Below the pieces are notes generated by a model. The model worked only from the letters and a program-made list of their open reading frames with translations. It was not told where the DNA came from and searched no databases. Shown here piece after piece: positions 6,777-58,710 of a DNA stretch of 64,000 nucleotides (positions are counted from its first letter, which is position 1; every line of letters begins with the position of its first letter). This stretch comes from an uncultured Candidatus Saccharibacteria bacterium (lineage in GTDB: Bacteria; Patescibacteriota; Minisyncoccia; Phycocordibacterales; UBA918): positions 73,339 to 137,338 of the forward strand of contig CAZRNZ010000002.1 in assembly GCA_964601615.1 (NCBI GenBank), read 5' to 3'. The position numbers were made by a program, and so were the translations under genes.

Positions 6777-7871
6777 CTATTTATTCATAGGCATCACTAG
6801 ATAACGAATTGTATTATCACTAACGCCTTTAATTATGAGAGGTCGTCCAATTCCAGAAAACTGCATATTTATACTATCGTCAGAAAAATGACTCAAACAC
6901 TCTGATAAGTAACGCTGGTTAAAATTAAGCGTAATTTCATCTCCAGTAGTTTCTGCTCTGATTGATTCAGTAGTAGTTCCAGACTCCCCTCCTACAGCTG
7001 AAGCAGTTAAGGAATTATTGGTTACATAAATTCCAACTTGGAAAAATTTATTTAAGAAAATATTTGTCTTTCTAAAAACACGACTCAGGTCTTCTCGCAA
7101 AACCGTAGCTGAAGAAGAAAATTCTTTTGGCATAATTTGTTCATAATCAGGAAAAGAGCCAGCCACAAGTCTTGAGGTAACATAAACACCCTCGGTAAAT
7201 TCCAAGGAAAACTGATTTTCATTAAATCGACAGACAGGATCACTTTCTACCGCATCTAAAATACGAGCAATTTCAATAGCATTCTTTTGTGGAATTAAAA
7301 CTGAACTATCAAAAATAACTCCTTTTTGTGGAACTGTTTTTTCCATCAATCTAAAAGAGTCTGTTGTTACAAAAGTTAAAGAATGCTCTTTCTTTTGAAA
7401 GACATAAACACTTCCAAGCTCAGGCTTAATGAGTGACTGAGATGCAGCGAATGCTGCAGACTTAATTCCCAAGCTGAACATTTGATTAACAATAGTTTGT
7501 CCACTTCCTTCAATTCTTGGAATTGAAGGAAACTCATCTGGAGAAACAGCCTTGATCATAGTCTCAGAACTATTACCTTCTACAATCAAAGAATTGCCGT
7601 CTAAACGGAGCGTAATCTCTTTTTCTGTACCCAGGTTGATTGTTTGTATTAAAACACTAGCAGGGACTGCTACCTCGCCAATCTCAGCGTTCTTTGCTTC
7701 AACATCAGCTTCAATACCAATCTCTAAATTAGTAGCTGAGATAGTTAGTTTACTTTCTGTAACTTTAAGTAGAACACACTGTAAGACAGGTAGTGTTAAA
7801 TGTTTTGTACTTATCTTTCCGACCATCTCTAACCTCTTTAGAAAAGATTCTCTATTTAACGTTACTTTCAT
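6777..7871 (-). CDS. dnaN: DNA polymerase III beta sliding clamp
   Basis: Three-domain clamp, about 365 aa from MKVTLNRESFL. The ORF-track N-terminal 34-aa extension runs into the AT-rich origin region and was trimmed. Confidence 0.9.
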   Translation of the reverse strand: MKVTLNRESFLKRLEMVGKISTKHLTLPVLQCVLLKVTESKLTISATNLEIGIEADVEAKNAEIGEVAVPASVLIQTINLGTEKEITLRLDGNSLIVEGNSSETMIKAVSPDEFPSIPRIEGSGQTIVNQMFSLGIKSAAFAASQSLIKPELGSVYVFQKKEHSLTFVTTDSFRLMEKTVPQKGVIFDSSVLIPQKNAIEIARILDAVESDPVCRFNENQFSLEFTEGVYVTSRLVAGSFPDYEQIMPKEFSSSATVLREDLSRVFRKTNIFLNKFFQVGIYVTNNSLTASAVGGESGTTTESIRAETTGDEITLNFNQRYLSECLSHFSDDSINMQFSGIGRPLIIKGVSDNTIRYLVMPMNK

Positions 7872-8183
7872 AGTATCCACATTATATCGCGATTGTTGTG
7901 GATTGTCGTATATTATTTTTTTCTTTCTTCTTTTCTCTTTATTATTAGGGGTGTTGATTGCTGGATAAGTCAAAAATACTTTTGTAAATAAGGATATTTT
8001 TCATGTTTAATATCCACAGGTGTAACTTAGTAATGTTGGATATAACTGTTGGTAACTGTCTTTTCTGGATAAGGTGGAATATATACACCTTTTTACCCAC
8101 AATTAATATGAGTCATAAACAGCAAAAAATCACTATTTATTCACATGTTATTCACAAGGATTGCACAGATTATTTATTAATTA
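7872..8183. other. Candidate oriC between dnaA and dnaN, with DnaA-box-like 9-mers and an AT-rich unwinding region
   Basis: TTATNCACA-like boxes at about 8009 (atatccaca), 8094 (ttacccaca), 8146 and 8158 (ttattcaca). AT-rich run at 7890-7960. Confidence 0.55.
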
Positions 8184-9726: not shown

Positions 9727-9746
9727 TGTGGATAAGTTGGGGATAA
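9727..9746. promoter_or_regulatory. Tandem DnaA boxes in the dnaA/rpmH divergent intergenic region
   Basis: tgtggataa (perfect TTATCCACA on the minus strand) followed by tggggataa (one mismatch). Confidence 0.55.
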
Positions 9747-9822
9747 TAATTTTTGCGATAGATAAAGTACTTGAAATAACCGAAAAACAGTGTATATTGG
9801 GGCAACTTGTAAAAATCAATGT

Positions 9823-9972
9823 ATGTCTAAAAGAACTTACCAACCAAGTAAAAAGAAAAGAATGACTACTCACGGTTTTCTTGCTCGCAAGAATAGCCCT
9901 AAAGGAAGCAATGTTCTTTTGGCTCGTCGCCGTAAAGGTCGCGCCAATCTTGCAGTGAAACCAAGTCGATAA
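9823..9972 (+). CDS. rpmH: 50S ribosomal protein L34
   Basis: [13 protein letters not shown]...GFLARK...VLARRRKGR matches the L34 consensus. Start trimmed to an internal Met. Confidence 0.9.
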
Positions 9973-10021
9973 TTTCTTTCGAAAAAATCTAAGGCCAGAA
10001 TAACTGGCACACAACAGTATT

Positions 10022-10345
10022 ATGTTGAAGAAAAAAGAGCGATTAACAAAAAAAGAGTTTGATCGCTTTTTTTCTTTGGGAAAAAGGTTGCACTCCCCTT
10101 TCTTTACTATTGTTTATACAAAGAGTGATAATTTTCACGGGGCAGTAGTGGTGGGAAAAAAGGTTTTTAAAAACGCTGTTGATAGAAATCTTTTGCGTCG
10201 GCGGTTGTACAATTCGCTTTATAAGTTGTCTCGTGCGGATAATCTAAAAGGAGTGTATATAATACTATCTAAGCCACAAGCGGCTAAAATGTCTTTTTTT
10301 GATTTATACCAAGAGATGAAGACTATTACTGATTCTATAAAATAA
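10022..10345 (+). CDS. rnpA: Ribonuclease P protein component
   Basis: Basic 107-aa protein with the RnpA pattern (FTIVY...VVGKKVFKNAVDRNLLRRRL) in the conserved rpmH-rnpA-yidC order. Confidence 0.85.
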   Translation: MLKKKERLTKKEFDRFFSLGKRLHSPFFTIVYTKSDNFHGAVVVGKKVFKNAVDRNLLRRRLYNSLYKLSRADNLKGVYIILSKPQAAKMSFFDLYQEMKTITDSIK

Positions 10346-10348
10346 TTT

Positions 10349-11077
10349 ATGTTCTCTACTATTTGGCACACAATCTTTTTCGACCCAATTTATAATGGGC
10401 TAGTTTTTTTTATTGACGTTATTCCAGGTGGAGATATTGGTTTGGCGATTATCTTTACCACTATTGTAGTTAAGTTAATTTTGATGCCTCTTTCTATTAA
10501 GGCAGCTAAAACTCAAAAGGTTATTCGTGAAATTGAGCCAGAATTAAAAGAAATCCAAGAAAAATATAAAGATGATCGCGAATCTTTGGCCAGAGAGACG
10601 ATGACTTTATATAAGAATAAAGGAATAAATCCTTTTTCCAGTATTTTCTTGTTACTTTTACAGATTCCAGTTGTAATTGCACTTTATCTTTCTGTATTAA
10701 GTGGCGGAGGCGTTCCTTTGCCTAACATTAATCAGGAACTTCTCTACTCTTTTGTTCCTTCTCCTGAAACTGTTGATATGATTTTCTTAGGTTTTGTGGA
10801 TATTGCTGCTAAGAGTTGGCCTTTAGCTTTATTGGCAGGACTCGCTCAGTTTGCTCATGCAAATATTTCTTTACCAAAATTAGGTGGAAGAAAGGCTGGT
10901 GAAGTTGATTTTAAGGCAGATTTTGCACGTAGCATGGATATGAATATGCGGTATGTTATGCCGGCCATTATTGCTGTTTTTGCTTACACCCTCTCTGCTT
11001 CAGTAGCTTTATATTTCTTGGTAAGTAGTCTGTTTGCGATTGCACAAGAGTTTGTAATTAGAAGACATAGGAATTAG
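10349..11077 (+). CDS. yidC: Membrane protein insertase YidC/Oxa1 (short Gram-positive-type)
   Basis: Multi-TM protein with the conserved PLSIKAAKTQKVIREIEPELKEIQEKYKDD region, following rnpA. Confidence 0.88.
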   Translation: MFSTIWHTIFFDPIYNGLVFFIDVIPGGDIGLAIIFTTIVVKLILMPLSIKAAKTQKVIREIEPELKEIQEKYKDDRESLARETMTLYKNKGINPFSSIFLLLLQIPVVIALYLSVLSGGGVPLPNINQELLYSFVPSPETVDMIFLGFVDIAAKSWPLALLAGLAQFAHANISLPKLGGRKAGEVDFKADFARSMDMNMRYVMPAIIAVFAYTLSASVALYFLVSSLFAIAQEFVIRRHRN

Positions 11078-11086
11078 TTTTGGAAA

Positions 11087-11119
11087 TAAAATACCCCGAA
11101 GCTTTGCTTCGGGGTATTT
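11087..11119. terminator. Bidirectional terminator after yidC and at the end of the T4SS-like operon
   Basis: aaaataccccgaagctttgcttcggggtatttt. Confidence 0.7.
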
Positions 11120-11122
11120 TAT

Positions 11123-12313
11123 TTATAACCCTAGATTATAAAGCCAAAGACTGTTATTGGTTTTATTTAAGAAGAGCAACTTTTTCCCATCCTCTGTAAC
11201 AAATAACTTTATTACATCAATATCAAATCCCGCTAAATTTGGTAAGTAAGATAATATTTTAGCTGAACCATCAGTATTTTGTTGCCATAGTGTGTCTGAA
11301 GAAGTTATTTCACCTTTGTACCATTTTGATAAACTTTCTCTGTTGCCATCGTTTATTTGTGAGGAAAGTGCACAAATAAAACCTGTTAATTCACTATGGG
11401 TACATTTTTCGGGCACTGCTAATACTGAGGCATTAGCTAAGCTGTTATTTTCAATATTCTGAATAGCGTTAGTAATTTTCTGTCTATCTGTATCAAAGCC
11501 AGAATATAAAATGTTATTACCTGATTTGTCGATTACAGCAGAAAAACTATACAAATTTTTCTGGTTAATTCTCTGGGTATTTCCATTAATTATCTCGTAT
11601 ACCCCCCCTTTAAACCAAGGAGAGTTTTTGTTCGTTAAATAAGTTTTATTGTCAGACCAAAAAACTTCTATTTCAGTCATTGGTGTTGTCCATAGATCCT
11701 GAGTAAGATTCTCTTGCCAGTCATACTGTCGGGCAAATGTTTGATTGTTTTCTATAGTTGTATATCTAATGTCACCAATATTATTAAAAGAGAAATTACT
11801 GCTGTTTATGGGCAGTTTAGTGCTTTTAACAGTATTACCCCCAAGGGCGACAATAGTTGGTATTATGTCTGTTACCTGCTCTGATTCTAGAACAACCAAT
11901 TCACCGCTCAAATTAAATATTGCATTAACTGTTTTCCCTGTGGTATTTCCTGAAATTCTTGATTCACTATTATTATCTAAATTTATTTCATATACATGCC
12001 CAGTTCCTCTTTCAACGTAGCGAATTCTCTCTGGTTTTTCGGGGGTTGTAGTGGATGCTTCAATTTTGGGTAGATAAACGAAACCCGCAACCACTTTAGT
12101 GGTAAGTTGTCTTAATTGATTTTGATTGTCTGCCAGCTGAGTGTTTCCTGAATTTGTTTCTGTTTGTATTTCCGTCGGTTGTCCAATTATTCCTAGATCA
12201 GTAAAAACACTATTAATATTATTAGGTGTTCCAAATAAAAGTAAATAACCCCAAAGTAGTAGCAAGGTAACTACTACAAAAATACCAATTCCTACTAGTA
12301 TTCTTTGGGTCAT
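11123..12313 (-). CDS. Membrane-anchored extracytoplasmic protein, last gene of the T4SS-like operon
   Basis: N-terminal TM helix then an about 360-aa N/T/S-rich domain. 2-bp gap to the upstream gene. Confidence 0.5.
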   Translation of the reverse strand: MTQRILVGIGIFVVVTLLLLWGYLLLFGTPNNINSVFTDLGIIGQPTEIQTETNSGNTQLADNQNQLRQLTTKVVAGFVYLPKIEASTTTPEKPERIRYVERGTGHVYEINLDNNSESRISGNTTGKTVNAIFNLSGELVVLESEQVTDIIPTIVALGGNTVKSTKLPINSSNFSFNNIGDIRYTTIENNQTFARQYDWQENLTQDLWTTPMTEIEVFWSDNKTYLTNKNSPWFKGGVYEIINGNTQRINQKNLYSFSAVIDKSGNNILYSGFDTDRQKITNAIQNIENNSLANASVLAVPEKCTHSELTGFICALSSQINDGNRESLSKWYKGEITSSDTLWQQNTDGSAKILSYLPNLAGFDIDVIKLFVTEDGKKLLFLNKTNNSLWLYNLGL

Positions 12314-12314
12314 A

Positions 12315-12935
12315 TTAGTTTGGGTTACATTTATAAATAGTTGCTAATTGGGTACCGGTCCAGTAATTTTCATCGCGCGCTACATTTCCCTGGTTTTGGT
12401 TACATAGCTGAGTCAGTTCACTTACAGTTCGATCAAAACAGCCTGAGTCACTATTTTGACAGTGACTGAGTATGGATGTGGAATGAACAAATTCGTGAGT
12501 GTAAAACTCATCGCGAAGTGGCGTATTATTAACCACGCCAGTATTTTCTGAACCAGATTGAGTTGTTGTTGGTGCTAGTTCACTAGTTTCAAGTTCTTCT
12601 ATTATTGTTAGCCTAGTAAGATTGGGGTTAATTGTATTTAAAATAGTTACTGCTCCAAGGATTATCAGAAGTCCAAGTAGGGCATTTTTTATACGCTCTT
12701 TAGCGGCAGATTTTTTTGTTACCAGGTCTGATAACATATATTCAGCTCCTGCCCAAATAAGCATTCCTACAGCTGCAATTGCACCTAAAGCAATTGCAGC
12801 CATATATATAGCTTGAATATAATTACTAGAAGAAACTTCACCTGTAATAAAGGGTATTTGTTGAAAAGTAGTTATTTCATTGGCGCTTACTATAGTTGGT
12901 GCTAATAATATAGCTAAAAATAATATCTTTCTCAT
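12315..12935 (-). CDS. VirB2/TrbC-like pilin candidate with a Cys-containing C-terminal extension
   Basis: Signal peptide (MRKILFLAILLAPTIVSA), two hydrophobic helices separated by a short basic loop (classic VirB2/TrbC topology), then an about 100-aa tail with 4 Cys. Assigned by architecture and operon context. Confidence 0.5.
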   Translation of the reverse strand: MRKILFLAILLAPTIVSANEITTFQQIPFITGEVSSSNYIQAIYMAAIALGAIAAVGMLIWAGAEYMLSDLVTKKSAAKERIKNALLGLLIILGAVTILNTINPNLTRLTIIEELETSELAPTTTQSGSENTGVVNNTPLRDEFYTHEFVHSTSILSHCQNSDSGCFDRTVSELTQLCNQNQGNVARDENYWTGTQLATIYKCNPN

Positions 12936-13681
12936 AGATTTAAATTGAAAATACCCTTAGTAATTTCCGATAGATTTTGTTGACTACGAACATTTAATAT
13001 AACCTCAGTTGTTTCTTTATTAAAAGAATCGCTTCTAATTAAAGAAACTTCTCGCCAGTCATTTGGATTAAGTACAATATTTACACCCTGAGATTGCCAT
13101 GATCCTAGTGTATTAGAAAGAAGTGATTGAGTACCAAAGAAAAATGGCTCCGCTCGTACAGAAGTTTCGTTTCCTATTAAAATAAGATTTTTACCAATTG
13201 AATTTTGATTAAGACCACGAAGTTCATTATTTTCATAAAATAAGATCTTAGGAGAAGAAGTTTTTATGTATTCAGAAGCTGTACCAATGTTTTGCCCAGA
13301 AGCTGTACTTACTGTAACACTGATTAACACTTCCCTATTTGTAGCAGGTAAGTTTGTTATAACAAAAGGTGCTGATGTAGTTATGTTTTGGCTACCGATC
13401 CTCCAATTAAATCTACTCGCCTGAATATTTGTTTCTGGAATAGCAGTTATCTTTACAGAACTACCTACTATTGGCTCACTTCTACCTTTATAAAAATATG
13501 GTTTGTAAGTATTGGCTTCAACTATAAGGTCAATTGTCGAAAGACTCACAGTTGCTGTACTTGTTGCAATGTTTTGTCCATTATTAATGGGTAAAACAAA
13601 ACTTTGTTGAGCATGAGCAAAATTTATATTAAATAATATTGCTAAAAATAATATATATTTTTTTTTGCCTGTTGATGCCAT
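12932..13681 (-). CDS. Secreted protein (signal peptide), T4SS-like operon
   Basis: N-terminal signal peptide, beta-rich composition, 4-bp overlaps on both sides. Confidence 0.5.
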   Translation of the reverse strand: MASTGKKKYILFLAILFNINFAHAQQSFVLPINNGQNIATSTATVSLSTIDLIVEANTYKPYFYKGRSEPIVGSSVKITAIPETNIQASRFNWRIGSQNITTSAPFVITNLPATNREVLISVTVSTASGQNIGTASEYIKTSSPKILFYENNELRGLNQNSIGKNLILIGNETSVRAEPFFFGTQSLLSNTLGSWQSQGVNIVLNPNDWREVSLIRSDSFNKETTEVILNVRSQQNLSEITKGIFNLNL

Positions 13682-13694
13682 TCAGTAAATGATA

Positions 13695-14327
13695 TCACAG
13701 AGATTTATCACGAAGGAACATATATAAAGACCAAAGCCACATTATTGGGAATAAGTTTATTATTGGGCAAAGAAGAAGAACTAAACAAACTGATATCACC
13801 AAAATACTAAATCCTCCCAAAACATCTTCGCCACTTCCTGTATAAAGTGCTGCAGCTACGAACCAAGTTACTAAACCGCATATCATAGAGCCAGCAATTC
13901 CTATCAAAAATACTCCGGTGCCAGCTTCTTGAATTGAGTTAAATGTTACCCAGTTAAGAGCTGACATTACCCAATTTGATTCTGTTTCTGACATTAACCC
14001 TAGACCAATTAAGGCTATCAGAGCTAGACATAGTTGGATTATATAAATAATCACCGTATATGAAATAGAGGTGGTAAAAAGTTTGAAAGATGCTGCATCA
14101 GCATTTAATTTGTCACTAATCTTCACAAAATCTTTTACTTCCTGAGCAGTGTTTTGATTTGGAAAGAACTTAACCTTTTTAGGTGAAATACGTGGGGAAC
14201 TATTTCGTTGAGAGATGTTTGGACGACTCGGTTTTTTTAAACGTGAGTCATTACTAAAACCGCTCCCTGATTTAGTTGAACCACTAGGAGTCGGGGTCTT
14301 TTTTACTACAACGTTTTTTATGACCAT
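13695..14327 (-). CDS. Polytopic membrane protein with a basic S/P/K-rich N-terminal tail, T4SS-like operon
   Basis: About 80-aa disordered basic N-terminus followed by 4 predicted TM helices. Confidence 0.5.
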   Translation of the reverse strand: MVIKNVVVKKTPTPSGSTKSGSGFSNDSRLKKPSRPNISQRNSSPRISPKKVKFFPNQNTAQEVKDFVKISDKLNADAASFKLFTTSISYTVIIYIIQLCLALIALIGLGLMSETESNWVMSALNWVTFNSIQEAGTGVFLIGIAGSMICGLVTWFVAAALYTGSGEDVLGGFSILVISVCLVLLLCPIINLFPIMWLWSLYMFLRDKSL

Positions 14328-14330
14328 AGG

Positions 14331-16139
14331 CTAGTCTCGCAACGATTTAAGTTCAGCGCGAGCTTTTTTGATCTGAAGAAGTTGAGAAGGGTCAGATGTA
14401 ATAATTTGATCTTCTGTATAACTTGCTATCACTTTGATAGCAACATGTTTTAGTCCCACAAAGAATATACCCTCCCCCACGTTACTCTCTAGCAGCAAAA
14501 GTTTCTCTTCGTCAGTAAGATTGAAAGTTTTTTGTACGCTATCTATTGCGGTTGGTGATTGCTTCATTAAAAATTGTAATGAAGAGTTGGTAATCATAGG
14601 AACTCCGTAAGGGGAGCGCAAAAAGTCGCCCACATCTTGTGTGATAGTAGCAATACCAAGATAGTACTTTCGGCCACGTTTAGCTAGAGAAAACAGGAAG
14701 GAAGCAGTGTCTTCGCTTTTCATCATCCACCAAGCTTCATCGATAACCATCAAACGTTTTGCTAGGCGACGTCTAATCATATTCCAGATATGGTTTGTGA
14801 TGATATACATAGCAATTGTTTTGAGTTCATCTTCCATGTCACGCAGGGAGAAAACAATAAACTTTTGGTTTATATCCACATTAGTTGGATGATTCATGAA
14901 GCCAGACCAGGTTCCGCTAGTGTATTTTTGTAAGCGAGCGATAAGTGAATTACTTCCCTCCATTCCTGCTAATACCATTTCAAAATCTGAAAGAAGTGGA
15001 TACTCCATACCTGTCCAATCAGCATCTCCGGTAATGTCTTTAAGTGCGTAAACTTCGCGAATAGCTTGGTCAACAATAGTTTCCTCTTCAGGTGAAAGTC
15101 CGCCTAGCATTAAACGCATCAAGCCAATTAACTCAATGATATGAGAGCGTAGAATATCGTTTGGATCTTCATCTTCTTGCGGGTCTGGCAGGTCAAATGG
15201 GTTTATATGGTGTGGACTAGACAGAGAGATGTTGAAAAAACGTCCTCCTGTAGCTTCAGCTAAGTACTCATATTCCCTTTCAGGGTCGAGGACAATAACT
15301 TCTGTACCAAACATTAAAGAACGAAGAATCTCTAATTTAATAGCATAAGATTTTCCAGCACCAGAAGTAGCGAATGTTACTGAATTATAGTTTGTTAAAG
15401 AAAACCTATCGAATAATACAAGTGATGAGTTGTGACGGTTTATACCGTAAAGTATGCCGTTGTCACTAGTTAGGTCAAAAGATGTAAAAGGAAAAAAGCT
15501 AGAAAGTGGTGAAGAATTAAATTTACTATGAACTAAAAGCTCATCAGTCATTGTTGGTAAAACACTTTTTATACCTTGCTCTTGCTGGAATAATGCTGGT
15601 TTAATATAAACCAGTCTAGAATCTAGAATTCCTTTTACTTCTGATTCAGTTTTATTTAAAATATCTTCGTCTTGTCCGTAAACTGCGATATATAAACCTA
15701 CATCAAAAAGCTTCTCCTCAGCTTGTTGAAGTTTGTCGCGCAAATCTTCTAGGTTTCTATAAGCAGCTTCAAGTTGAGGGTCGCGCACCATCCCCTTGCT
15801 TTCGTTTGCATTGATTTGACTTTGTACCTCAGCTACTTTCTTTTGAAATTTCTTTAAAGTATCCGCAGTGTCTATCGGATGAATCATTATTGATACGTCC
15901 ATTTCTTTTTCTAAGTTTAAGATAGGTTCGAGCCATCCGTCATTTAAATAACGAGGATAAGATACTGCAAAAAAAACACGGGCATTTTGACCACTTATAT
16001 TTATATGACGTGGTTGCACAGAGACTGCTGATGGAGCAACAACATCTTCTAGTGTCATTAGGGCACTTTTAGTATCTAGAACATTATTATCACTAATTGC
16101 ACCAGATTTATTTTGTTTTATTAAATCAAAAATTCCCAT
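14331..16139 (-). CDS. virB4: VirB4/TrbE/CagE-family type IV secretion ATPase (C-terminal ATPase domain)
   Basis: Walker A FATSGAGKSYAIK, Walker B RLMVIDEAWWMM (the DEAW signature of VirB4), and a downstream IATITQDVGDF motif. Confidence 0.85.
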   Translation of the reverse strand: MGIFDLIKQNKSGAISDNNVLDTKSALMTLEDVVAPSAVSVQPRHINISGQNARVFFAVSYPRYLNDGWLEPILNLEKEMDVSIMIHPIDTADTLKKFQKKVAEVQSQINANESKGMVRDPQLEAAYRNLEDLRDKLQQAEEKLFDVGLYIAVYGQDEDILNKTESEVKGILDSRLVYIKPALFQQEQGIKSVLPTMTDELLVHSKFNSSPLSSFFPFTSFDLTSDNGILYGINRHNSSLVLFDRFSLTNYNSVTFATSGAGKSYAIKLEILRSLMFGTEVIVLDPEREYEYLAEATGGRFFNISLSSPHHINPFDLPDPQEDEDPNDILRSHIIELIGLMRLMLGGLSPEEETIVDQAIREVYALKDITGDADWTGMEYPLLSDFEMVLAGMEGSNSLIARLQKYTSGTWSGFMNHPTNVDINQKFIVFSLRDMEDELKTIAMYIITNHIWNMIRRRLAKRLMVIDEAWWMMKSEDTASFLFSLAKRGRKYYLGIATITQDVGDFLRSPYGVPMITNSSLQFLMKQSPTAIDSVQKTFNLTDEEKLLLLESNVGEGIFFVGLKHVAIKVIASYTEDQIITSDPSQLLQIKKARAELKSLRD

Positions 16140-16142
16140 ATC

Positions 16143-16781
16143 CTATTTATTACTTGGTGGATTTTTCTTAACATCACCGGGGTTGAAAATATGATAATAA
16201 AGCTCAACCAATTCTTCATTTTTTAGTAAAATGCTGCGGACGCCAACCGAAGAAAGACCCTGTTCTACCAATGATAATCTTTGTTCAAGTTGAGTTTTAT
16301 GTTCGGTAAAATTTTTGTCATCAAAATAAACATTTTTTTGACCGCCTAGCATCTCTTTAAAATTACCAAGATTCTTTTGTAAATTAGCAGAGGTTGGAGT
16401 ATAGGGAATGATAACAAAAAAACTTTTTGACATTACATCAACTTCATTTGTGAAGTTTTTAATAAATTGAATATATTCTCTGAGTTGAATTTTCATCAAT
16501 TCATTGTTTTGACTATCTTCCCTAGAGGCTAGAAGGTTTAGATATGGCTGAATATCGAGCCTACGAGATTGAATATAAATCTGAATTGAAAAATCTAAGG
16601 TGTTTAAGAAAGTTTGAAATTGGCGGAGAATAGCTTCTTGTTCGTCATATGATTTAAGGGCAAAGTTAATTGAAGACGCTAAAAGAACCATATTCATTTG
16701 GCCGTTCTTCAAAATAACCACGTCATCTCTAACGTCGCTTACTGGTACAAAATTCTGAGTAGTATTTTTGTCTGCTGCCAT
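16143..16781 (-). CDS. Soluble protein directly upstream of virB4, candidate split-off VirB4 N-terminal domain
   Basis: 212 aa, 3-bp gap to virB4. Combined 212+602 aa matches typical full-length VirB4 (about 800 aa). Inference. Confidence 0.45.
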   Translation of the reverse strand: MAADKNTTQNFVPVSDVRDDVVILKNGQMNMVLLASSINFALKSYDEQEAILRQFQTFLNTLDFSIQIYIQSRRLDIQPYLNLLASREDSQNNELMKIQLREYIQFIKNFTNEVDVMSKSFFVIIPYTPTSANLQKNLGNFKEMLGGQKNVYFDDKNFTEHKTQLEQRLSLVEQGLSSVGVRSILLKNEELVELYYHIFNPGDVKKNPPSNK

Positions 16782-16813
16782 CGTTACAATATAATAACAT
16801 TATCTGTTCAGCG

Positions 16814-17233
16814 TTAACGATTATCTTTTTGAATAGCTTTCATTTCAAGGCGTCGAGAAAGAGAAGCAATATTGTTTTCAGTAGTTGTTGGTGGGATATA
16901 TGAAGACGTGCTTACTGGAGGTGTGTTTTCGGAAGATGTATTATAAATCCCACTCCCCTTTTTGCGCCAGAAATATAATTTATTACCTTGGAAATATCGC
17001 ACAGCCGCCTCAAGGAAGTTAGAAAAAGGTCGGTTGTTTACTGGATAAAAAGCTAACAAAAAAGTTAGTGCTAAAACTGGAATACCAAGTAAAACAAAGA
17101 TAATAAAAGGAGTAAAAAAGAAAAGTACTGCTGATAATCCAACTCCTCCAGCAATATAAACAAATTGCTTCCAGGTCAGTGGACCAAAAATCTTGTCTTC
17201 TATTTCAATAAATTGTGGAACTTCGAATCTCAT
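16814..17233 (-). CDS. VirB3-like small membrane protein (two TM helices)
   Basis: 139 aa with a hairpin pair of TM helices (FVYIAGGVGLSAVLFFFTPFIIFVLLGIPVLALTFLLAFYPV) located just upstream of the VirB4 module, as for VirB3/TcpE/ConD. Confidence 0.5.
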   Translation of the reverse strand: MRFEVPQFIEIEDKIFGPLTWKQFVYIAGGVGLSAVLFFFTPFIIFVLLGIPVLALTFLLAFYPVNNRPFSNFLEAAVRYFQGNKLYFWRKKGSGIYNTSSENTPPVSTSSYIPPTTTENNIASLSRRLEMKAIQKDNR

Positions 17234-17793
17234 TTTTTGATTATATCATCTTGTGAAGAGCGATATACACCTTCTTCCTCAGATGTCTGACTCTTAAATG
17301 TGCCGTAACTATGAGCTCGGCTTATTTCTACATCTTCTGCAAAAGTCCTAATTGGTTTTACTGCATTCTGAATAGTCTCTTTTACTTCAGGAGTAATTTT
17401 TGGTGAAGTATTTTCTGTTCCTTCTGTTATTGTAGGCTTTATTTCTTTAGAGGTTTCGTCTTCTAATAACTCTGCAGCAATTTTTAACTCTCCGTCAACA
17501 ATTGAAAAAAGTTCTTCATCCAAAAAAAGAGAAATTTCTCTAGCAATAGATATTTCTGTAGGTAATGATTCTGTTAATCTCTCTATAAGACCTTTTCTGG
17601 TAAGAAAAAGATATAAAATCAAATCTATTTCCATTTGTAAGCCAGATTTTTGTTCCTCACTTAATGTGAACTGACTTACAGTCTTTTCTAATACAACCTC
17701 AACTGTGCCATATTGAAATAGCTCAATAATACTAAGTGGTAGCGCTTGGTATCTTTGTTGCATTAATTCTGGTAGTTGAGAGTTGTTGTACAT
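17230..17793 (-). CDS. Acidic soluble hypothetical protein, T4SS-like operon
   Basis: 187-aa ORF with a 4-bp overlap to the downstream gene. Confidence 0.45.
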   Translation of the reverse strand: MYNNSQLPELMQQRYQALPLSIIELFQYGTVEVVLEKTVSQFTLSEEQKSGLQMEIDLILYLFLTRKGLIERLTESLPTEISIAREISLFLDEELFSIVDGELKIAAELLEDETSKEIKPTITEGTENTSPKITPEVKETIQNAVKPIRTFAEDVEISRAHSYGTFKSQTSEEEGVYRSSQDDIIKK

Positions 17794-17803
17794 ATTTATC
17801 TTT

Positions 17804-19825
17804 TTACTTACCCTTTATCTTCTTTTTGTATTCGTTTCTGATTTCTGTTGCAGCATTGTCATTCTGTGATTTATCTCTTCCTGTAAAGAGGTTGGATATA
17901 ACATTTTTATTTTCAACTGTTGTAGCGTAACCCCCTGCTTCTTTGTCTGCTTTCTTTTCTGCGTTTGCTAAATCTTTTTTTGTTTCTGCTATCTCCTTCT
18001 GTAAATCACTCATTTTAGATTCGATTTCAGATTGTTTTTGCGCGTCATCTCTAGCTGAGGCACGTTCAAGTTGAAGTTCAGCAAAAGCAGACATTTTATT
18101 CTTCAACTCCTTCTTTTTGTCGTCTATTTCTTTATTAGTGCCAGAAGCTATATTGGTTTTAGAGCCAGTTTGACGGCGGAATCTTTCTGCACTAAGCGCT
18201 TCAGTTTGTTTACTTTTTTCATCTTCCAACTCTTCTCCTTTAGCGCGAAATGACTCTATTTGTGCTCTAATCACCTGCCGCTCTCCTTCATCTTTGGATT
18301 CAGATAATGATTTACGTTTATCTTGTATAAGTCTCTTGTTATCCTTAATTGCTTGATCTACAGCATCAACTTCTGTTTGTAAACGTGCAATTACTGGATC
18401 GCTACCACTCACCTCGCCAAGATTTTTGGCATAATTAACCTCTTTATCAAGAACTTGTTTAGTTGTTGTAGCGTAACCACCTTTTACTCCCTCACCAAGA
18501 CCCATCTTTGTACTTGTTGATCTATTTATATTACGAGCATCAAAACTACTGTCACCTAATTTTGTTGTGACATTAAGTGCGCGTCTACCTGCCCAACCAC
18601 TAACTCCTCCGCCAGAAGCTCGATCTCTTCCCTTGTCACTATCGGCGTAGTTTTGTGACCAGCGTCCAACTGTACCTCTTAATCCACCGGCTGCTAAGCC
18701 TGCTGGATTAACATTATTGGCTACATTTATTGCTAGATTAGCACCAGTGTCACCAAATTTTCTGGCTACATAAAGAGCTGCCCAGGCAAAAGCAGCGACA
18801 AAGAAAGAGGATACAATAAAACCAAAAGTATCCATGTCCCCTTGTGCTCTATTGGCCATCAATGTTTCTAGGGCTCTAAGTGATACTAGAAGCATAAAAA
18901 GATATGCTGGACCCATTATGGTTTGGTTTATTAACCTTTTCCACCAAGAGCTACTTAAGTTTTTAAAATTTGGTAAAACCCAACCCAAAAACATAATTGG
19001 CGAAAACATCATTAAGAATATCAGGTAGATAAAGCGTGAAAACATTAGAAGTGCCCCAGCCGCAAAAGTGAAGCCCATAATAATGAACATCAAACAAATT
19101 GCTATACCAATACCAAAAGCATCTCCCCAATTATATCCGCCAGATTGTTGGTCCTCGTCACTGTTGGATATGTAGTTACTAATAGCAAGACTTCGACTAC
19201 TAATAGATTCAATATCTGTAGCAGCTAGGAATCTGTCGTGAATTCCATATACTGGCATACCCATAACGGTAGCTGTTATGCCTGCATCGTCATCTAAGAC
19301 TAATACATTTCTTATTTCAGCAGCAGTGATATTACCAAAATCAATTACTATTTGAGCAGCGTAAAGACTAAAGTTTATTAATAAAGCGGCAATTAATAAA
19401 CTACCTAATGTTCTTTTTGCCTTACCCTCGTCTATTTGTAGAATAATTCTGAATCCTATAAAAATTATGCCAAATATGAATAGAAGATTGAATAAATCTC
19501 TAATAAATTCCCAAACGTACTGAATAACGTCGTCTAGCTGAAGTGTTGAAACTAGACCTGGCATGTTGAAGACAAATAAAGATAAGCTGATGTCTAGTAG
19601 TGAACCACCAATCCAAAGAAAAAAGCCACCTATAGTCGTAAGTGATACATAGATAACCCTACCGATATTGTCAAAGTTTTCAGCCATATTACCCGCATCA
19701 CCAGCTGTACCTGTAGTAGTCGTAGTTGCATAAGCGGTAAATGGACTCAGTAGCAAGGAAAAAGCAAAAAACACTAACAAAAAAATTAGCATTGAAATTA
19801 GTGTTTTTTTTCTTAACCCAAACAT
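17804..19825 (-). CDS. VirB6/TrbL-like polytopic membrane protein with a C-terminal coiled-coil charged tail
   Basis: Signal/TM N-terminus, 6 or more TM helices over about 380 aa, then an about 290-aa K/E/D-rich predicted coiled-coil (KEIDDKKKELKNKMSAFAELQLERASARDD...). Confidence 0.6.
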   Translation of the reverse strand: MFGLRKKTLISMLIFLLVFFAFSLLLSPFTAYATTTTTGTAGDAGNMAENFDNIGRVIYVSLTTIGGFFLWIGGSLLDISLSLFVFNMPGLVSTLQLDDVIQYVWEFIRDLFNLLFIFGIIFIGFRIILQIDEGKAKRTLGSLLIAALLINFSLYAAQIVIDFGNITAAEIRNVLVLDDDAGITATVMGMPVYGIHDRFLAATDIESISSRSLAISNYISNSDEDQQSGGYNWGDAFGIGIAICLMFIIMGFTFAAGALLMFSRFIYLIFLMMFSPIMFLGWVLPNFKNLSSSWWKRLINQTIMGPAYLFMLLVSLRALETLMANRAQGDMDTFGFIVSSFFVAAFAWAALYVARKFGDTGANLAINVANNVNPAGLAAGGLRGTVGRWSQNYADSDKGRDRASGGGVSGWAGRRALNVTTKLGDSSFDARNINRSTSTKMGLGEGVKGGYATTTKQVLDKEVNYAKNLGEVSGSDPVIARLQTEVDAVDQAIKDNKRLIQDKRKSLSESKDEGERQVIRAQIESFRAKGEELEDEKSKQTEALSAERFRRQTGSKTNIASGTNKEIDDKKKELKNKMSAFAELQLERASARDDAQKQSEIESKMSDLQKEIAETKKDLANAEKKADKEAGGYATTVENKNVISNLFTGRDKSQNDNAATEIRNEYKKKIKGK

Positions 19826-19829
19826 AAAT

Positions 19830-21347
19830 TTACTGACTCAATAAGATACCATCATAGTCAAACTCTCCCCCACAATTTTGTTTACTTATGGCGGTATCAT
19901 ACTTGAACCTATCTACCATCTGAGAGAATTCAAGGTCTATATAGGATATCTTTAATTCTTGATTTTTGTAAGCGGTTTGGAATAAACCTTGAGTTTTATA
20001 GGCATTATAAGATACTAAAGCAGCATTTTTAGTTGTTGCATCGCTAGATGAATACTGTGTATCAAGGGTTGTAAGGATTGAGATTGTAGTAGATGCGACA
20101 CTGGTACCTGCCAGACCGTTTTCTCTTGCCTTTTTTAGTTCATCTGTTAACTCCATGTCAAAACAAGGAGAAAATTCTTCTTTGTTTTGATCTAATTTTG
20201 TTTGCAGTGCTGAAACTTCATTTAGTATATGTTGTTGAAGTTGTAAATACTCTTGTTCTATCGCCAAAGCTTCTTTTATTACGTTTGAATTATTAACTTG
20301 GTATTGCGTAATATTATCGGTTATTAATGCTTCGACATAAGAAAGTGCTCCATCTGGTCCAAATATACTCTGGCTATATATTGGGTTTCCAGTTAATCCG
20401 AGAACTCCAGTTAGACCCTGCAAAGCTTGGTTGGCAAGATTGTTCATCAAATTAGAAGCAATTTCATTAAATTCATCCATGTTCAACATCTGCAAACCTG
20501 GAAGTTCGACCAAGTTGAAAGAGACCATATCAGCCGCCAATGATGGAGGATTTACAATACGACAGTCAGTTCTATTTCCGCCGTTTGCTGTTTCAACATC
20601 TGTACATACTCGCTGAGGCAACATACCTCTCGTGTTACTTATTAGATCACGCTCATTTTGAATAGCATTGGCCTGTCTTCTATTTAAAGTATTTTGACCT
20701 TCATAAACAGCACACATATCATCACGACAGTTTACAAAATCACCTAAAAGTCTATGTGAAATACTTTTGTATTGATTCGTATCCCCTTCTGTTGACTGAA
20801 GCACTCCACCATTAACTCCTTTTTCCCGCTGGCTTAAGTAACCATTATAAAGAGCAGTTCTCACACGGTGTGCTTTCTCTGGGTCAGATTGACCACTAGT
20901 GTCTAGACCTTCTGAGAAAATAAAATCACCAGCAACTTGGTCATTTATATTTTGGTAATACTCAGAATAATTTTGGACAAACGGAATTTGCCCATCTTGA
21001 CCTGGTTGTTGACCGCCTAGCCATTTGAGTAATTCTCCAGTAAGTTGTTGTTGCATCTGCTTGGCCATTCCCCAAGCCGCTGGGTCAAGAACTTGTTCCT
21101 TGAAGAGTAATTGTTCAATTGCGTCAGCAGTTTGTCCTCCTGTAATAGAGGATAAGGTTGTTTTAATCGCTGTTGTAATAGCTGATTCAGAAGCATCACT
21201 GATTATGCGAACATTTTGCACTCCTGAACCAAATATATTTCCTGCTATACTGCCAAGTAGATCCCCTAGTTGCGCTTCGGCCTTCAGGTTTGTAAAACCA
21301 AAAGTTAGACAAAATATAGTTAGGAAGATTGTTATTTTTGTTTTCAT
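19830..21347 (-). CDS. Secreted Cys-containing protein, T4SS-like operon
   Basis: Signal peptide MKTKITIFLTIFCLTFGFTNLKAEA, 505 aa, multiple Cys pairs. Confidence 0.5.
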   Translation of the reverse strand: MKTKITIFLTIFCLTFGFTNLKAEAQLGDLLGSIAGNIFGSGVQNVRIISDASESAITTAIKTTLSSITGGQTADAIEQLLFKEQVLDPAAWGMAKQMQQQLTGELLKWLGGQQPGQDGQIPFVQNYSEYYQNINDQVAGDFIFSEGLDTSGQSDPEKAHRVRTALYNGYLSQREKGVNGGVLQSTEGDTNQYKSISHRLLGDFVNCRDDMCAVYEGQNTLNRRQANAIQNERDLISNTRGMLPQRVCTDVETANGGNRTDCRIVNPPSLAADMVSFNLVELPGLQMLNMDEFNEIASNLMNNLANQALQGLTGVLGLTGNPIYSQSIFGPDGALSYVEALITDNITQYQVNNSNVIKEALAIEQEYLQLQQHILNEVSALQTKLDQNKEEFSPCFDMELTDELKKARENGLAGTSVASTTISILTTLDTQYSSSDATTKNAALVSYNAYKTQGLFQTAYKNQELKISYIDLEFSQMVDRFKYDTAISKQNCGGEFDYDGILLSQ

Positions 21348-21349
21348 AA

Positions 21350-22207
21350 TTACTCTATTTTTATAAAGCGAGAAGCAATATCATTATTATTCCATTTTAT
21401 TCCCAATTTATCTAAAGAAAGATAAAGATTAGATATTGCCAAATAAAGAGCTTCTGTATCTGACTGATATCTTTGGAGTCTTGCCATTGCTGGAAAAGCA
21501 TCATTAAATAGATTTTTAAATGCTTTGATATCTTTCAATATTGCGTTGTAAACATTTATTAGTGAAAGATGTTCTTTAACTAGAGATGGAGGTACTTCAG
21601 TTGCCAACATTGCAGAAATCATTTTTTCGTAAGATTCGATAATTGGATCGAGATCATTTAGTATCTCAGCCTTGTTTCTATTAAGAGCCCGGTTCACTAT
21701 TAGTAGTTCATTGTCTGTATTTGCTGGAGGAGCAAAATCAAAAGTAATGGCTGCAACTTTATTTCCGTAAGTACGAAGAATTTCTTGGTTATTACTTGAA
21801 CCAACTTTAATATCACTTCTGTCATATTGGATATCTAAACTTTCTTGTCTTACTTGCGAAAGAAGAGAGTCGGTATTTTGATTACCTGATGTGTTACCTA
21901 TATATGATTGGGTCGCTAAAGTTACAGCCAGCGCTGCAGTTTTTGTCATGGTGGCTGAATTATTCTCCCCTCCTAAATGAATGGTTGGGATATTTAAAGA
22001 TTCTTGCCAGTCTGGAATTCCATCAAAGTTTTTGTCTGTAATGTTAATAAAAGTTCTAGTGTTGCTCACTAGTGTTGGTGCAACTTTATTTGTTTCTTCT
22101 CTATCCTCTTTATATATTGATGCTACAAAAGAAGTACCAACCAAAGTTAGTCCAAACAAGGAAGCGGCTGCGATTTTCGGATTTATTTTTATTCCCATCT
22201 TATCCAC
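21350..22207 (-). CDS. Secreted or membrane-anchored protein, first gene of the T4SS-like operon
   Basis: N-terminal hydrophobic segment. The ORF-track start at 22207 is a GTG; the first ATG is at 22198. Confidence 0.5.
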   Translation of the reverse strand: MDKMGIKINPKIAAASLFGLTLVGTSFVASIYKEDREETNKVAPTLVSNTRTFINITDKNFDGIPDWQESLNIPTIHLGGENNSATMTKTAALAVTLATQSYIGNTSGNQNTDSLLSQVRQESLDIQYDRSDIKVGSSNNQEILRTYGNKVAAITFDFAPPANTDNELLIVNRALNRNKAEILNDLDPIIESYEKMISAMLATEVPPSLVKEHLSLINVYNAILKDIKAFKNLFNDAFPAMARLQRYQSDTEALYLAISNLYLSLDKLGIKWNNNDIASRFIKIE

Positions 22208-22210
22208 AAA

Positions 22211-22250
22211 TTATAACAGCCGCCAAATTTATTTGGCGGCTGTTATCAAC
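22211..22250. terminator. Perfect hairpin, rsmA terminator, abutting the first start codon of the T4SS-like operon
   Basis: gttataacagccgccaaat / atttggcggctgttatcaac, an about 19-bp stem. Confidence 0.6.
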
Positions 22251-22255
22251 TTTAT

Positions 22256-23071
22256 TTAAGATAAATCCTTAATTTCTTTACAAATCGCTAACCACTTTTC
22301 TAGTGGTACATCCTCACCTCTTATATCTAGTGATAAATCTAGTTTTAAAAATAATTCTTCTAATTTTTTACGCTCGTAATTTTTAGATAGGTTTCCAATA
22401 AGTTGCTTTCTCTTTGAACCAAAACCTAAATGGATTATTTCAAAAAAAAGTTCAGCCGAAACTTCCGATAGCTTGTCTTTGTTTATTTCGTAAACTGCCA
22501 CAATAGCTGAATCAACTTTTGGCGGTGGGGTGAAGTGTCCCTTACCAACTGATTTAATGTATTTAGGTTTTCCAAATACTTGTATTGATAATGATAGAAG
22601 TGACTCCTTCTCCCCTTTCATAACTCCGGTCGTCGCTCTTTTACCAACTTCTTTTTGTACCAAAAAAACTAGTGTGTTTGGTTGAATATCGCCAGCTAAA
22701 AATGTTCTAAATAATTGTCCAGTAATGTAGTAAGGAATATTTGCTACTGCCTTAAAAGATTTGTTCGGCAAATTTAAATCACGCAAATCAAACTGGCGAA
22801 CATCAGCATTATGCACAACAAGTTGTCCATTTGAAATTTCTTCAGCAAAAGTTTTTTCTAAAACTTCAATTGCTCTGCTGTCAGTTTCGAGTGCAATAAC
22901 TTTTGCACCTCGTTTCAAAATTTCTTTTGTGAGCGCACCAGTTCCTGGTCCAACTTCTACGACCAAATCATCTTCAGTAAGTTCTCCGGCATCACACATC
23001 CAACGCGGAACAACATCACTGTTCAAAAAGTGTTGCCCAAGAGATTTTTTTGTTTGAAATTTTTCTGTCAT
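22256..23071 (-). CDS. rsmA: 16S rRNA (adenine1518/1519-N6)-dimethyltransferase
   Basis: KKSLGQHFL N-terminus and the SAM-binding VVEVGPGTGALT motif. Confidence 0.9.
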   Translation of the reverse strand: MTEKFQTKKSLGQHFLNSDVVPRWMCDAGELTEDDLVVEVGPGTGALTKEILKRGAKVIALETDSRAIEVLEKTFAEEISNGQLVVHNADVRQFDLRDLNLPNKSFKAVANIPYYITGQLFRTFLAGDIQPNTLVFLVQKEVGKRATTGVMKGEKESLLSLSIQVFGKPKYIKSVGKGHFTPPPKVDSAIVAVYEINKDKLSEVSAELFFEIIHLGFGSKRKQLIGNLSKNYERKKLEELFLKLDLSLDIRGEDVPLEKWLAICKEIKDLS

Positions 23072-28600: not shown

Positions 28601-28977
28601 GGAGTTTCGTTCATGTGCTGTTTACAAGTACGAGCAGAAGGGTTTGCTTCCAAACGGTCTTCTTCTATCTGCTCACCTGACACTTCGCATATTCCATAAG
28701 TACCTTGTTCAATTTTTTCTAGAGCCAACGTAATGTTGTTGTATCTGGTTTCAAGTTGAGCCAAAGTCGCTCGCCTTTCATCGTAAGCCTCGGTACGATC
28801 TGCTACGTCATTTAAATCTGCGCTAACTACATCTAAATCGTCAGCTCTTTCTACCCAATCTCCGGCAACATCAGGATTTTTTACTCCCAATTCATTTAGG
28901 GATTCTTTGATCTTACTCAAATCTTCCTCTAAAAGATTTTTGTATTTTTCTGTGTTCATATTAAATAATATTAACAC
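28597..28977 (-). CDS. DksA/TraR-family protein with a degenerate C4 zinc finger
   Basis: C-terminal YGICEVSGEQIEEDRLEANPSARTCKQH aligns with the DksA/TraR C4 region, but only 2 of the 4 Cys are retained. Coiled-coil N-terminus. 4-bp overlap with comM. Confidence 0.55.
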   Translation of the reverse strand: MLILFNMNTEKYKNLLEEDLSKIKESLNELGVKNPDVAGDWVERADDLDVVSADLNDVADRTEAYDERRATLAQLETRYNNITLALEKIEQGTYGICEVSGEQIEEDRLEANPSARTCKQHMNETP

Positions 28978-57365: not shown

Positions 57366-57512
57366 AGTTATTTATTGATTTTCTCTGGTTTTAAAAGGAG
57401 TGATATTTTTCTCAATTTTGCCTAGCTATTGAATTAGATTTTATTTTGCTGTTTAATACTCGATAGGTAGATTTCTATTCTAGAAATCTTTGCTTCAAAG
57501 GGAGGTTTCCTA

Positions 57513-58178: not shown

Positions 58179-58187
58179 AAAGAACTT

Positions 58188-58213
58188 AAAGAACGGGTTT
58201 AAACCCGTTCTTT
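58188..58213 (+). terminator. Terminator
   Basis: aaagaacgggtttaaacccgttcttt. Confidence 0.6.
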
Positions 58214-58239
58214 TATTTTGCCTAGTGTAATATATACGT

Positions 58240-58707: not shown

Positions 58708-58710
58708 TAA

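Follow-up and report, generated by a model that had tools for sequence, protein, structure and literature searches.

What does an operon that resembles a type IV secretion system (T4SS) do when no conjugation genes accompany it and it lies beside the replication origin? This question is raised by a block of eleven genes on contig CAZRNZ010000002.1 of an uncultured Candidatus Saccharibacteria bacterium (GCA_964601615.1), of which positions 73,339 to 137,338 of the forward strand, a window of 64 kb, were analysed. A preliminary description, made from the sequence alone, had taken the block for a T4SS-like operon, perhaps in a candidate phyla radiation (CPR) bacterium, and VirB4, VirB6-, VirB3- and VirB2-like genes were found where it had placed them. 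The block is almost certainly a T4SS of the Patescibacteria type. It is very probably a chromosomal, vertically inherited T4SS of Paceibacteria-class Patescibacteria, with a VirB4 lineage related to the MPF-FATA systems, and most likely serves as a non-conjugative apparatus for host contact. Its eleven minus-strand open reading frames (ORFs) fill exactly the span that had been reported, 11123-22207, and encode proteins, numbered o1 to o11 in transcription order, of 285, 505, 673, 187, 139, 212, 602, 210, 249, 206 and 396 aa. All of the ORFs are intact and tightly packed, with spacings in the same order of 2, 4, 10, -4, 32, 3, 3, 13, -4 and 1 nt as calculated from the ORF coordinates; the tight packing agrees with the earlier account, but its range of 2-11 bp gaps or 4-bp overlaps does not, two gaps measuring 32 and 13 nt. 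Five genes were assigned by profile, two have generic folds (immunoglobulin (Ig)-like and TolB-like), and four belong to no family.

The conservation of the block was examined in relatives of its VirB4. A scan of one genome per species yielded 553 such relatives, the best 80 of which were taken as comparison loci; many of these are incomplete, and 43 include both borders of the block, which spans 10.8-17.7 kb among them. All 80 are from metagenome-assembled genomes of Patescibacteria (Nomurabacteria, Kaiserbacteria, Paceibacteria and others), and their VirB4 proteins are 68-90% identical to that of the window. Essentially all loci whose flanks are long enough share the gene order pcrA-ksgA-[block]-yidC-rnpA-dnaA-dnaN, and, with iterated local profiles used to recover the unassigned families, all eleven families recur in the same order, each in 26 to 80 of the 80 loci. 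The synteny in relatives that the preliminary description had set as a test is hence kept across the related loci. VirB4 identity is correlated with the identity of DnaA, YidC, PcrA and KsgA (Spearman 0.74-0.81). It exceeds that of DnaA in 56 of 57 loci (mean 74% vs. 66%), a margin biased upward by the choice of loci through VirB4, and in these VirB4-ranked loci VirB4 is also far more conserved than DnaN, YidC or KsgA. Because the divergence of VirB4 tracks that of its housekeeping neighbours and the gene order recurs, these comparisons indicate that the locus is vertically inherited, chromosomal and under strong constraint, and is not a mobile element.

The motor of the system is encoded by o7, which matches the NCBIfam CD1110-family VirB4-like conjugal transfer ATPase at 368.8 bits (cutoff, 325 bits), aligning with model positions 179-733 of 752, and Pfam P-loop_TraG at 7e-27. 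In the PDB it is closest to 4AG5, the C-terminal domain of VirB4 (2.9e-41), with TrwK (4e-7) next. The motifs on which the VirB4 call had been based were found, namely GAGKS (Walker A) at residue 260, VIDEAW (Walker B) at 465 (within LMVIDEAW at 463) and ITQ at 499. The best models of o7 are the VirB4 families CD1110 (Bacillota) and Mbov_0397 (Mollicutes), and its nearest plasmid homologues are all from Bacillota or Actinomycetota (27-35% identity). The protein is without the first ~180 residues of a full-length VirB4, and the adjacent gene, o6, encodes a protein with hits to the N-terminal portions of VirB4 models (VirB4_plasma positions 100-252 at 2.4e-13; CD1110 model positions 2-120) and to TrsD/TraD (1.5e-5). 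Because o7 aligns only from model position 179 and o6 matches the N-terminal regions, VirB4 is predicted to be split in two, o6 being the N-terminal domain that is absent from o7. The o6 gene stands next to the VirB4 gene in 79 of the 80 loci, with a median identity of 52%. Directly upstream of this TrsD-VirB4 pair, always in that position and in 77-79 of the 80 loci, is o5, a member of the PrgI family (PF12666, 40.9 bits against a cutoff of 27 bits, E 3.2e-10).

The VirB6, VirB3 and VirB2 calls had originally been drawn from topology and position, and family matches now accompany all three: for o5 as above, for o10 directly, and for o3 through its orthologues. The o3 protein has about seven transmembrane (TM) segments and a long, charged, coiled-coil C-terminal tail of the “extended VirB6” type; its family is present in 67 of the 80 loci. 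Orthologues match PF04610 TrbL/VirB6 in 11 of 54 cases (best 2e-8) and TrbL_4 in one, and o3 itself gives a weak CD3337/EF1877 match (8.5e-4) and a weak precomputed TrbL_3 match. Because those 11 orthologues match TrbL/VirB6, the assignment of o3 as VirB6/TrbL-like holds, mainly by transitive homology. The o10 protein matches PF18895 T4SS_pilin at 32.9 bits (cutoff, 26.6 bits) and the Mbov_0395 pilin-like family at 5e-6; T4SS_pilin is found in 55 of 61 orthologues and TrbC/VirB2 in 9, and the family occurs in 66 of the 80 loci. Its pilin module, the only copy in the window, comprises a signal peptide and two TM segments (residues 38-102) and is followed by a C-terminal extension of 103 aa with 4 Cys. 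Among the orthologues this extension is anywhere between 10 and 356 aa long (median 157) and holds an even number of Cys, and in single species it carries a subtilase (Peptidase_S8) or a VanY peptidase domain.

The remaining members include four putative surface proteins. Neither Pfam nor NCBIfam gave a family for o1, o2, o4 or o8; domain scans of the orthologue sets yielded no more than accessory domains in the case of o1 and o2 and left o4 without a match, and profile searches of the PDB with o1, o2, o3 and o4 were uninformative. The o1 protein carries a thrombospondin-type-3-like DxDxDG Ca-binding motif, and 9 of 56 orthologues contain a TSP3_bac domain. An AlphaFold2 model of o1 (pLDDT 82.4, pTM 0.65) has a TM helix at residues 7-29 and a helical bundle at ~120-280, and is best matched in Foldseek by the four-helix-bundle domains of Tar, Tsr and PcaY (E 0.06-0.1). 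The model suggests an N-terminally anchored surface protein with an extracellular four-helix bundle; identification of o1 as a sensor or as VirB5 was rejected, the chemoreceptor-type matches (E ~0.1) being taken as a generic fold. The o2 protein is Sec-secreted, contains Cys and is all-helical, and it is probably surface-exposed because lectin, Ig, fn3 or PKD modules are appended to it in orthologues. The o9 protein is secreted or anchored and consists of Ig-like beta-sandwich repeats with a W-x-x-N-G motif, the window copy having one repeat fewer than most relatives; its orthologues contain BiPBP_C in 15 of 61 cases and Ig_3 in 5, and the family profile matches T4 Hoc (1.6e-7). The o11 protein is N-terminally anchored and extracellular with a conserved Cys pair, and its family profile matches TolB structures (E 1.3e-6 to 1e-5), with sporadic Pfam matches to PD40 or beta-propeller families. 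The families of o1, o2, o9 and o11 are present in 55, 62, 76 and 70 of the 80 loci, respectively. The cytoplasmic o4 begins with a helical domain of ~95 aa and continues as a disordered tail; in most of its orthologues the disordered region is followed by a terminal DPYRE motif, whereas the window copy ends in ...SSQDDIIKK. No family or structure was found for it in Pfam, NCBIfam, the orthologue-set scan or the PDB profile search, and it is conserved by position and profile in 68 of the 80 loci. The least conserved member, o8, has a basic disordered N-terminus and was found by profile in 26 of the 80 loci, closer relatives only, the slot being variable or empty elsewhere. Predicted topologies (seven hydrophobic segments in o3, three to four TM segments in o8, a signal peptide and two TM segments in o10, N-terminal anchors in o1 and o11, and a pI of 4.5 for o4) match those described earlier for the 673-, 210-, 206-, 285-, 396- and 187-aa proteins. 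The claim that the subunits other than VirB4 have no recognisable similarity stood for the 285-, 505-, 187- and 210-aa proteins but fell for PrgI, the pilin and the 212-aa TrsD-like protein.

The block also appears to be delimited as a transcription unit. The extended -10 motif TGnTAYAMT, searched comparatively, lies 14-34 nt upstream of the first block gene in 32 of 55 related loci; random 101-nt windows, used as background, contain it in 0.9% of cases, and it precedes the other block genes tested, o2-o4 and o9-o11, in 0-12%. Because of this enrichment, the operon is predicted to have a promoter of its own, located at 22218-22210 in the window (Table 1). The position of the element would imply a near-leaderless transcript for o1, and because the conserved element ends at 22210, translation probably starts at ATG 22198 (282 aa) rather than at GTG 22207, in agreement with NCBI protein P0044. 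The ORF does extend to 22207, where the preliminary description had ended the block, but the first gene probably starts inside that limit. The hairpin between ksgA and o1 is probably a ksgA terminator or insulator; the tail after its stem is weakly T-rich, and locus L001 shows the same layout, a hairpin followed by TATAAT. At the other end of the block, the palindromic hairpin between yidC and o11 is read as a bidirectional intrinsic terminator closing the operon; it was read directly from the sequence, and the hairpin pattern scan did not list it. On weak evidence, an internal promoter for PrgI-TrsD-VirB4 is possible: 16 of 75 loci have the -10 motif at about -15 relative to the PrgI gene, and in 8 of 79 it precedes the gene for TrsD. 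A scan with a sigma-70 pattern performed at background (51 sites found vs. 51 expected) and was replaced by the comparative analysis. Between the -10 element and the o1 ATG there is a perfect DnaA box, TTATCCACA (22200-22208, plus strand), one of four perfect boxes in the window. The ksgA-o1 spacers of relatives contain a box with at most one mismatch in 8 of 26 cases at variable positions, and control of the operon by DnaA through this box was rejected because the box is not conserved. Rfam and tRNA scans detected no RNA genes within the block, and its GC content (0.357 vs. 0.374 elsewhere in the window) shows no compositional difference.

Table 1. Coordinates of the block genes, flanking genes and transcription signals in the 64-kb window.
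Feature	Position	Strand	Description
o1 ORF	21350-22207, probable start 22198	-	285 aa as ORF, 282 aa from ATG 22198
o2	19830-21347	-	505 aa; Sec-secreted, Cys-containing, all-helical
o3	17804-19825	-	673 aa; VirB6/TrbL-like polytopic protein
o4	17230-17793	-	187 aa; acidic cytoplasmic protein
o5	16814-17233	-	139 aa; PrgI family, VirB3 equivalent
o6	16143-16781	-	212 aa; TrsD-like, predicted detached VirB4 N-terminal domain
o7	14331-16139	-	602 aa; monoderm-type VirB4 ATPase
o8	13695-14327	-	210 aa; small polytopic membrane protein
o9	12932-13681	-	249 aa; Ig-like repeat protein
o10	12315-12935	-	206 aa; VirB2-like pilin module
o11	11123-12313	-	396 aa; TolB-like beta-propeller
dnaN	6777-7973	-	flank
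dnaA	8216-9595	-	flank
rpmH, rnpA, yidC	9790-11077	+	flank beside o11; yidC convergent to block
ksgA	22256-23071	-	flank beside o1; followed by TrpR-like gene and pcrA, also minus strand
Extended -10 element TGTTATAAT	22210-22218	-	11 nt upstream of ATG 22198
Perfect 15-bp-stem hairpin	22213-22246	-	between ksgA stop (22256) and o1; 3′ arm overlaps -10 element
Candidate internal extended -10 TGATATAAT	17240-17248	-	6 nt upstream of PrgI start codon
Palindromic GC-rich hairpin AAAATACCCCGAAGC-AAA-GCTTCGGGGTATTTTATTT	11084-11120		A/T runs on both sides; between convergent yidC and o11

The inventory of the window bears on conjugation. All window ORFs were read by eye, with Pfam applied to unclear ones, and no relaxase, VirD4/TcpA coupling protein or recombinase/integrase was found within the 64 kb, as the preliminary description had claimed, nor was a VirB1-type hydrolase. 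The only Walker-A proteins there are RuvB, DnaA, VirB4, PcrA, ComM, a nucleoside-kinase-like protein and PilB. The additional claim that VirB11 is missing stood in that none was found, but a T2SSE-family ATPase, of the superfamily that includes VirB11, is encoded at 54389-56137; it is PilB and not VirB11 because it sits beside PilC and pseudopilins. The marks of a diderm MPF-T system (VirB7, VirB9, VirB10, the VirB11 ATPase and the VirB5 tip protein) were likewise not found. The vicinity of the replication origin, also noted earlier, is supported: five DnaA-box-like 9-mers (at most one mismatch) are grouped at 8010-8156 in the spacer that separates dnaA from dnaN, and another two, at 9727-9746, lie upstream of dnaA, with 33 matches in the window against 18.8 expected. 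This cluster supports a likely oriC in the dnaA-dnaN region, ~3 kb from the block; DnaA boxes were used for this purpose because GC skew, which follows gene strand in the window, was rejected as an origin marker.

Other envelope-related genes are located farther away. A type IV pilus locus (54389-61595, plus strand) encodes PilB (T2SSE + MshEN, 582 aa), PilC (T2SSF), a 221-aa membrane protein and three pseudopilin-like proteins, two of them with an N_methyl motif, and weak DUF5649 repeats mark a further protein of 634 aa; the type IV pilus is the other envelope machine reported to be essential in Saccharibacteria. On the minus strand, at 27083-28977, a ComM/YifB gene (Mg-chelatase-like, 505 aa) is followed by a gene for a DksA/TraR-type zinc-finger protein; these are housekeeping or competence-associated genes and not parts of the T4SS. 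A secreted protein with LysM and Peptidase_M23 domains, encoded on the opposite strand at 25947-27038 (plus) at a distance of 3.7 kb, might take the place of the missing VirB1-type wall hydrolase.

Several other explanations of the block have to be weighed. In one of them there is no T4SS here, and o7 is a HerA/FtsK-type DNA pump amid unrelated membrane proteins, an outcome against which the preliminary description had asked its VirB4 call to be tested. A weak match to DUF87 (HerA central domain) points that way, but it reaches 28.9 bits against 368.8 bits for VirB4, the PDB search with o7 that returned 4AG5 at 2.9e-41 gave no HerA or FtsK chain at E≤0.001, and PrgI, TrsD, pilin and VirB6 genes are adjacent; the HerA/FtsK identity is refuted by the Pfam, NCBIfam and PDB comparisons and retains next to no probability. 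Decay in place of an integrated conjugative element would explain the conjugation-type ancestry, the split of VirB4 and the missing VirB1 and VirB8 functions. It is nevertheless highly improbable, given ORFs that are intact and tightly packed, a conserved promoter, a VirB4 that is 68-90% identical across species and above DnaA, the lack of an integrase, repeats, a tRNA border or a compositional shift at this locus, and the essentiality of the homologous genes in a cultured relative (PMC10633639). Conjugation by a working system whose relaxase, oriT and coupling protein lie elsewhere in the chromosome is very unlikely as well, even though the closest homologues outside the CPR are conjugative (Clostridium perfringens pSXP-169_2 and Embleya) and, according to one survey, homologues of VirD4, the type IV coupling protein (T4CP), occur in most Patescibacteria genomes, usually distant from virB4 (PMC12102498). 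The same survey counts only 109 relaxases in 3,035 Patescibacteria genomes and reports that the distant T4CP of Southlakia epibionticum is non-essential while its T4SS is essential (PMC12102498); moreover, relaxase, oriT and coupling protein are absent from the 64 kb, and the block keeps a fixed housekeeping site in relatives and diverges together with its neighbours. Because no relaxase or coupling protein is found alongside and the site is a fixed housekeeping one beside oriC, the block is most likely not a conjugation machine.

The direction of transport is a separate matter. ComB-type systems, as in Helicobacter, are likewise without a relaxase and a T4CP, and Patescibacteria do not synthesise nucleotides, amino acids or lipids, so that their building blocks must be imported. 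A T4SS importing DNA, nucleotides or further molecules of the host, instead of exporting effectors, would fit these needs, the components found leave the direction of transport unfixed, and uptake has been raised in the literature (PMC11665869; PMC12857230). On the other hand, no ComB7-10-type components are present, and the competence of S. epibionticum requires ComEC and the type IV pilus, the loss of comEC being survivable and that of the T4SS lethal (PMC12857230). ComEC-dependent transformation is accordingly not the essential nucleotide route there, although other cargo would still be possible, and import as the main function is rather unlikely. Export of proteins or other cargo, or formation of a contact pilus, is moderately favoured by the analysis.

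The reading of the block as a non-conjugative T4SS for host contact follows from its genomic context together with the genetics of S. epibionticum, in which the cluster SEML1_0006-0019 was essential in co-culture (Wang et al., 2023; PMC10633639). A number of points weigh against it. The comparison loci were picked by VirB4 similarity, which inflates the conservation of VirB4 relative to its neighbours. The VirB6 match of o3 itself is sub-threshold, so that the call leans on orthologues, and the o3 profile meets TrwI (VirB6) in the PDB only at a non-significant E of 0.8. The C-terminal extension makes o10 atypical for a VirB2, and polymerisation into a pilus is putative. No VirB8-like NTF2 protein was found among o1, o2, o9 and o11, and no VirB1-type wall hydrolase domain was detected in the block by Pfam or NCBIfam. 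The frequent, distant VirD4 homologues mentioned above belong here too, since a coupling protein may be encoded outside the 64 kb, and the role of the T4SS in Patescibacteria has been called “completely unknown” in a 2024 perspective (PMC11665869), a judgement shared by a 2025 T4SS review (PMC12857230), the proposed roles being effector delivery and uptake of host molecules (PMC12857230; PMC11665869). The step from a lack of conjugation genes nearby to a secretion or contact apparatus is inferred, here as well as in the literature.

In full-length VirB4 proteins, the N-terminal domain touches VirB3 and the membrane. In the proposed model for the host-contact T4SS, o3, as a VirB6-like channel, and o5, as PrgI/VirB3, would form a translocon in the cytoplasmic membrane, driven by the split VirB4, of which o6 supplies the TrsD-like N-terminal domain and o7 the motor. 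The outer part would be built or adorned by the single pilin module of o10 together with the surface proteins o1, o2, o9 and o11. Placed where the epibiont touches its host cell, and possibly equipped with a pilus, the apparatus would carry proteins or other molecules from the epibiont or into it. The parts list, its conservation and the limits of the transcription unit come from the comparisons themselves, while we infer the direction of transport and the substrate. It is also tempting to speculate, with considerable doubt, that the filament or channel of the T4SS serves as a scaffold for the display of exchangeable outer domains (the hypervariable, disulfide-rich C-terminus of o10 and the modules that o2 swaps between species), which would determine host specificity or attack the wall of the host; to our knowledge, such a design of a pilus has not been described for any T4SS.

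Few machines have been shown to be indispensable to CPR bacteria living as epibionts; the Patescibacteria T4SS is one of them, and the present block is a clean Paceibacteria example of it. The system, including its proximity to the origin and the missing relaxase, is already described in three reports (PMC12102498; PMC10633639; PMC12857230), and its recognition here is a correct rediscovery and not a new kind of system. What is added is a complete, conserved eleven-gene parts list for the lineage, which includes the propeller, the Ig-repeat protein, the helical-bundle anchor and the pilin with a variable C-terminus, along with a conserved promoter and terminator and evidence of strict vertical inheritance. 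The variability of the o10 extension, the module swaps of o2 and the parallel with Pontibacillus described below are leads and not conclusions.

The closest known counterpart is the T4SS of the Patescibacteria clade. In the survey mentioned above, which covered 3,035 Patescibacteria genomes, VirB4 forms a monophyletic clade within MPF-FATA, TrsD is the partner met most often, relaxases are almost absent, PrgI/VirB3, VirB6 and VirB2-like pilins are found near virB4, and the cluster of Paceibacteria lies near dnaA, dnaN, rnpA, ksgA and rpmH (Quinonero-Coronel et al., 2025; PMC12102498). The S. epibionticum cluster, too, has been noted to contain pilins and to miss a relaxase and a coupling protein (PMC10633639). 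The block shares with these systems the monoderm VirB4, the separate TrsD, PrgI/VirB3, VirB6 and a VirB2-like pilin near virB4, the lack of a relaxase or T4CP in the cluster, and the chromosomal site near dnaA, dnaN, rnpA, rpmH and ksgA. It differs from the published accounts in having one pilin with a C-terminal extension where an array of six divergent pilins is described, and no peptidase or lysozyme directly downstream of virB4. The parts consulted of the two reports (PMC12102498; PMC10633639) make no mention of the TolB-like propeller, the Ig-repeat protein, the four-helix-bundle anchor or the helical secreted protein, nor do those of the former describe a variable C-terminal extension of the o10 type.

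More distant are the conjugative MPF-FATA systems of Bacillota (pCF10 Prg, pGO1 Trs and CTn2/CD1110), with which the block has in common a PrgI gene directly upstream of VirB4, a CD1110-family VirB4 (31% identity), a monoderm layout without VirB7, VirB9 and VirB10 and, in the pGO1 subclass, TrsD. By contrast, those systems possess their own MobC/relaxase, a VirD4-like T4CP, an SLT or CHAP hydrolase and a full-length VirB4 of ~780 aa, reside on mobile elements and not at a fixed chromosomal site, and have been described in the literature without VirB2-like pilins. The relaxase, oriT and coupling ATPase that define pCF10, pGO1, CTn2 and ICEBs1 were not found in the 64 kb. Ordinary conjugative clusters of this kind occur in C. 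perfringens pSXP-169_2, where MobC, relaxase, VirD4, PrgI, VirB4 and an SLT hydrolase stand together, and in Embleya, where a T4CP and a replication-relaxation protein lie beside virB4. As a functional precedent for import, the ComB system of Helicobacter pylori resembles the block in being a non-conjugative T4SS without a relaxase or coupling protein, but it is diderm and has VirB7-10 homologues, homology being shown only for the shared VirB2, VirB3, VirB4 and VirB6 families.

The closest plasmid-borne VirB4 belongs to Pontibacillus sp. ALD_SL1 (NZ_CP062975, 347256-367103), a short form of 621 aa with 33% identity. Like the block, this locus has a TrsD-like gene directly upstream of virB4 (E 6.6e-27) and a pilin-like gene of the Mbov_0395 family (E 9e-6), while a hypothetical protein of 779 aa fills the VirB6 slot; the annotation shows neither a relaxase nor a T4CP for 9 kb to each side. 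Unlike the block, it is carried by a free-living member of the Bacillota on a 0.9-Mb replicon beside flagellar genes, has a 1,050-aa M23 endopeptidase gene after virB4, and is without the CPR-specific surface proteins. Because TrsD-like, short VirB4 and pilin-like genes occur together there, the layout of a split VirB4 plus a pilin may not be confined to the CPR. Moreover, the adjacency of pilin-like genes to the short VirB4 and TrsD in Pontibacillus suggests that the pilin was already part of a monoderm ancestor and was not borrowed from diderm systems. The split-VirB4/TrsD/pilin locus of Pontibacillus could act as a tractable model.

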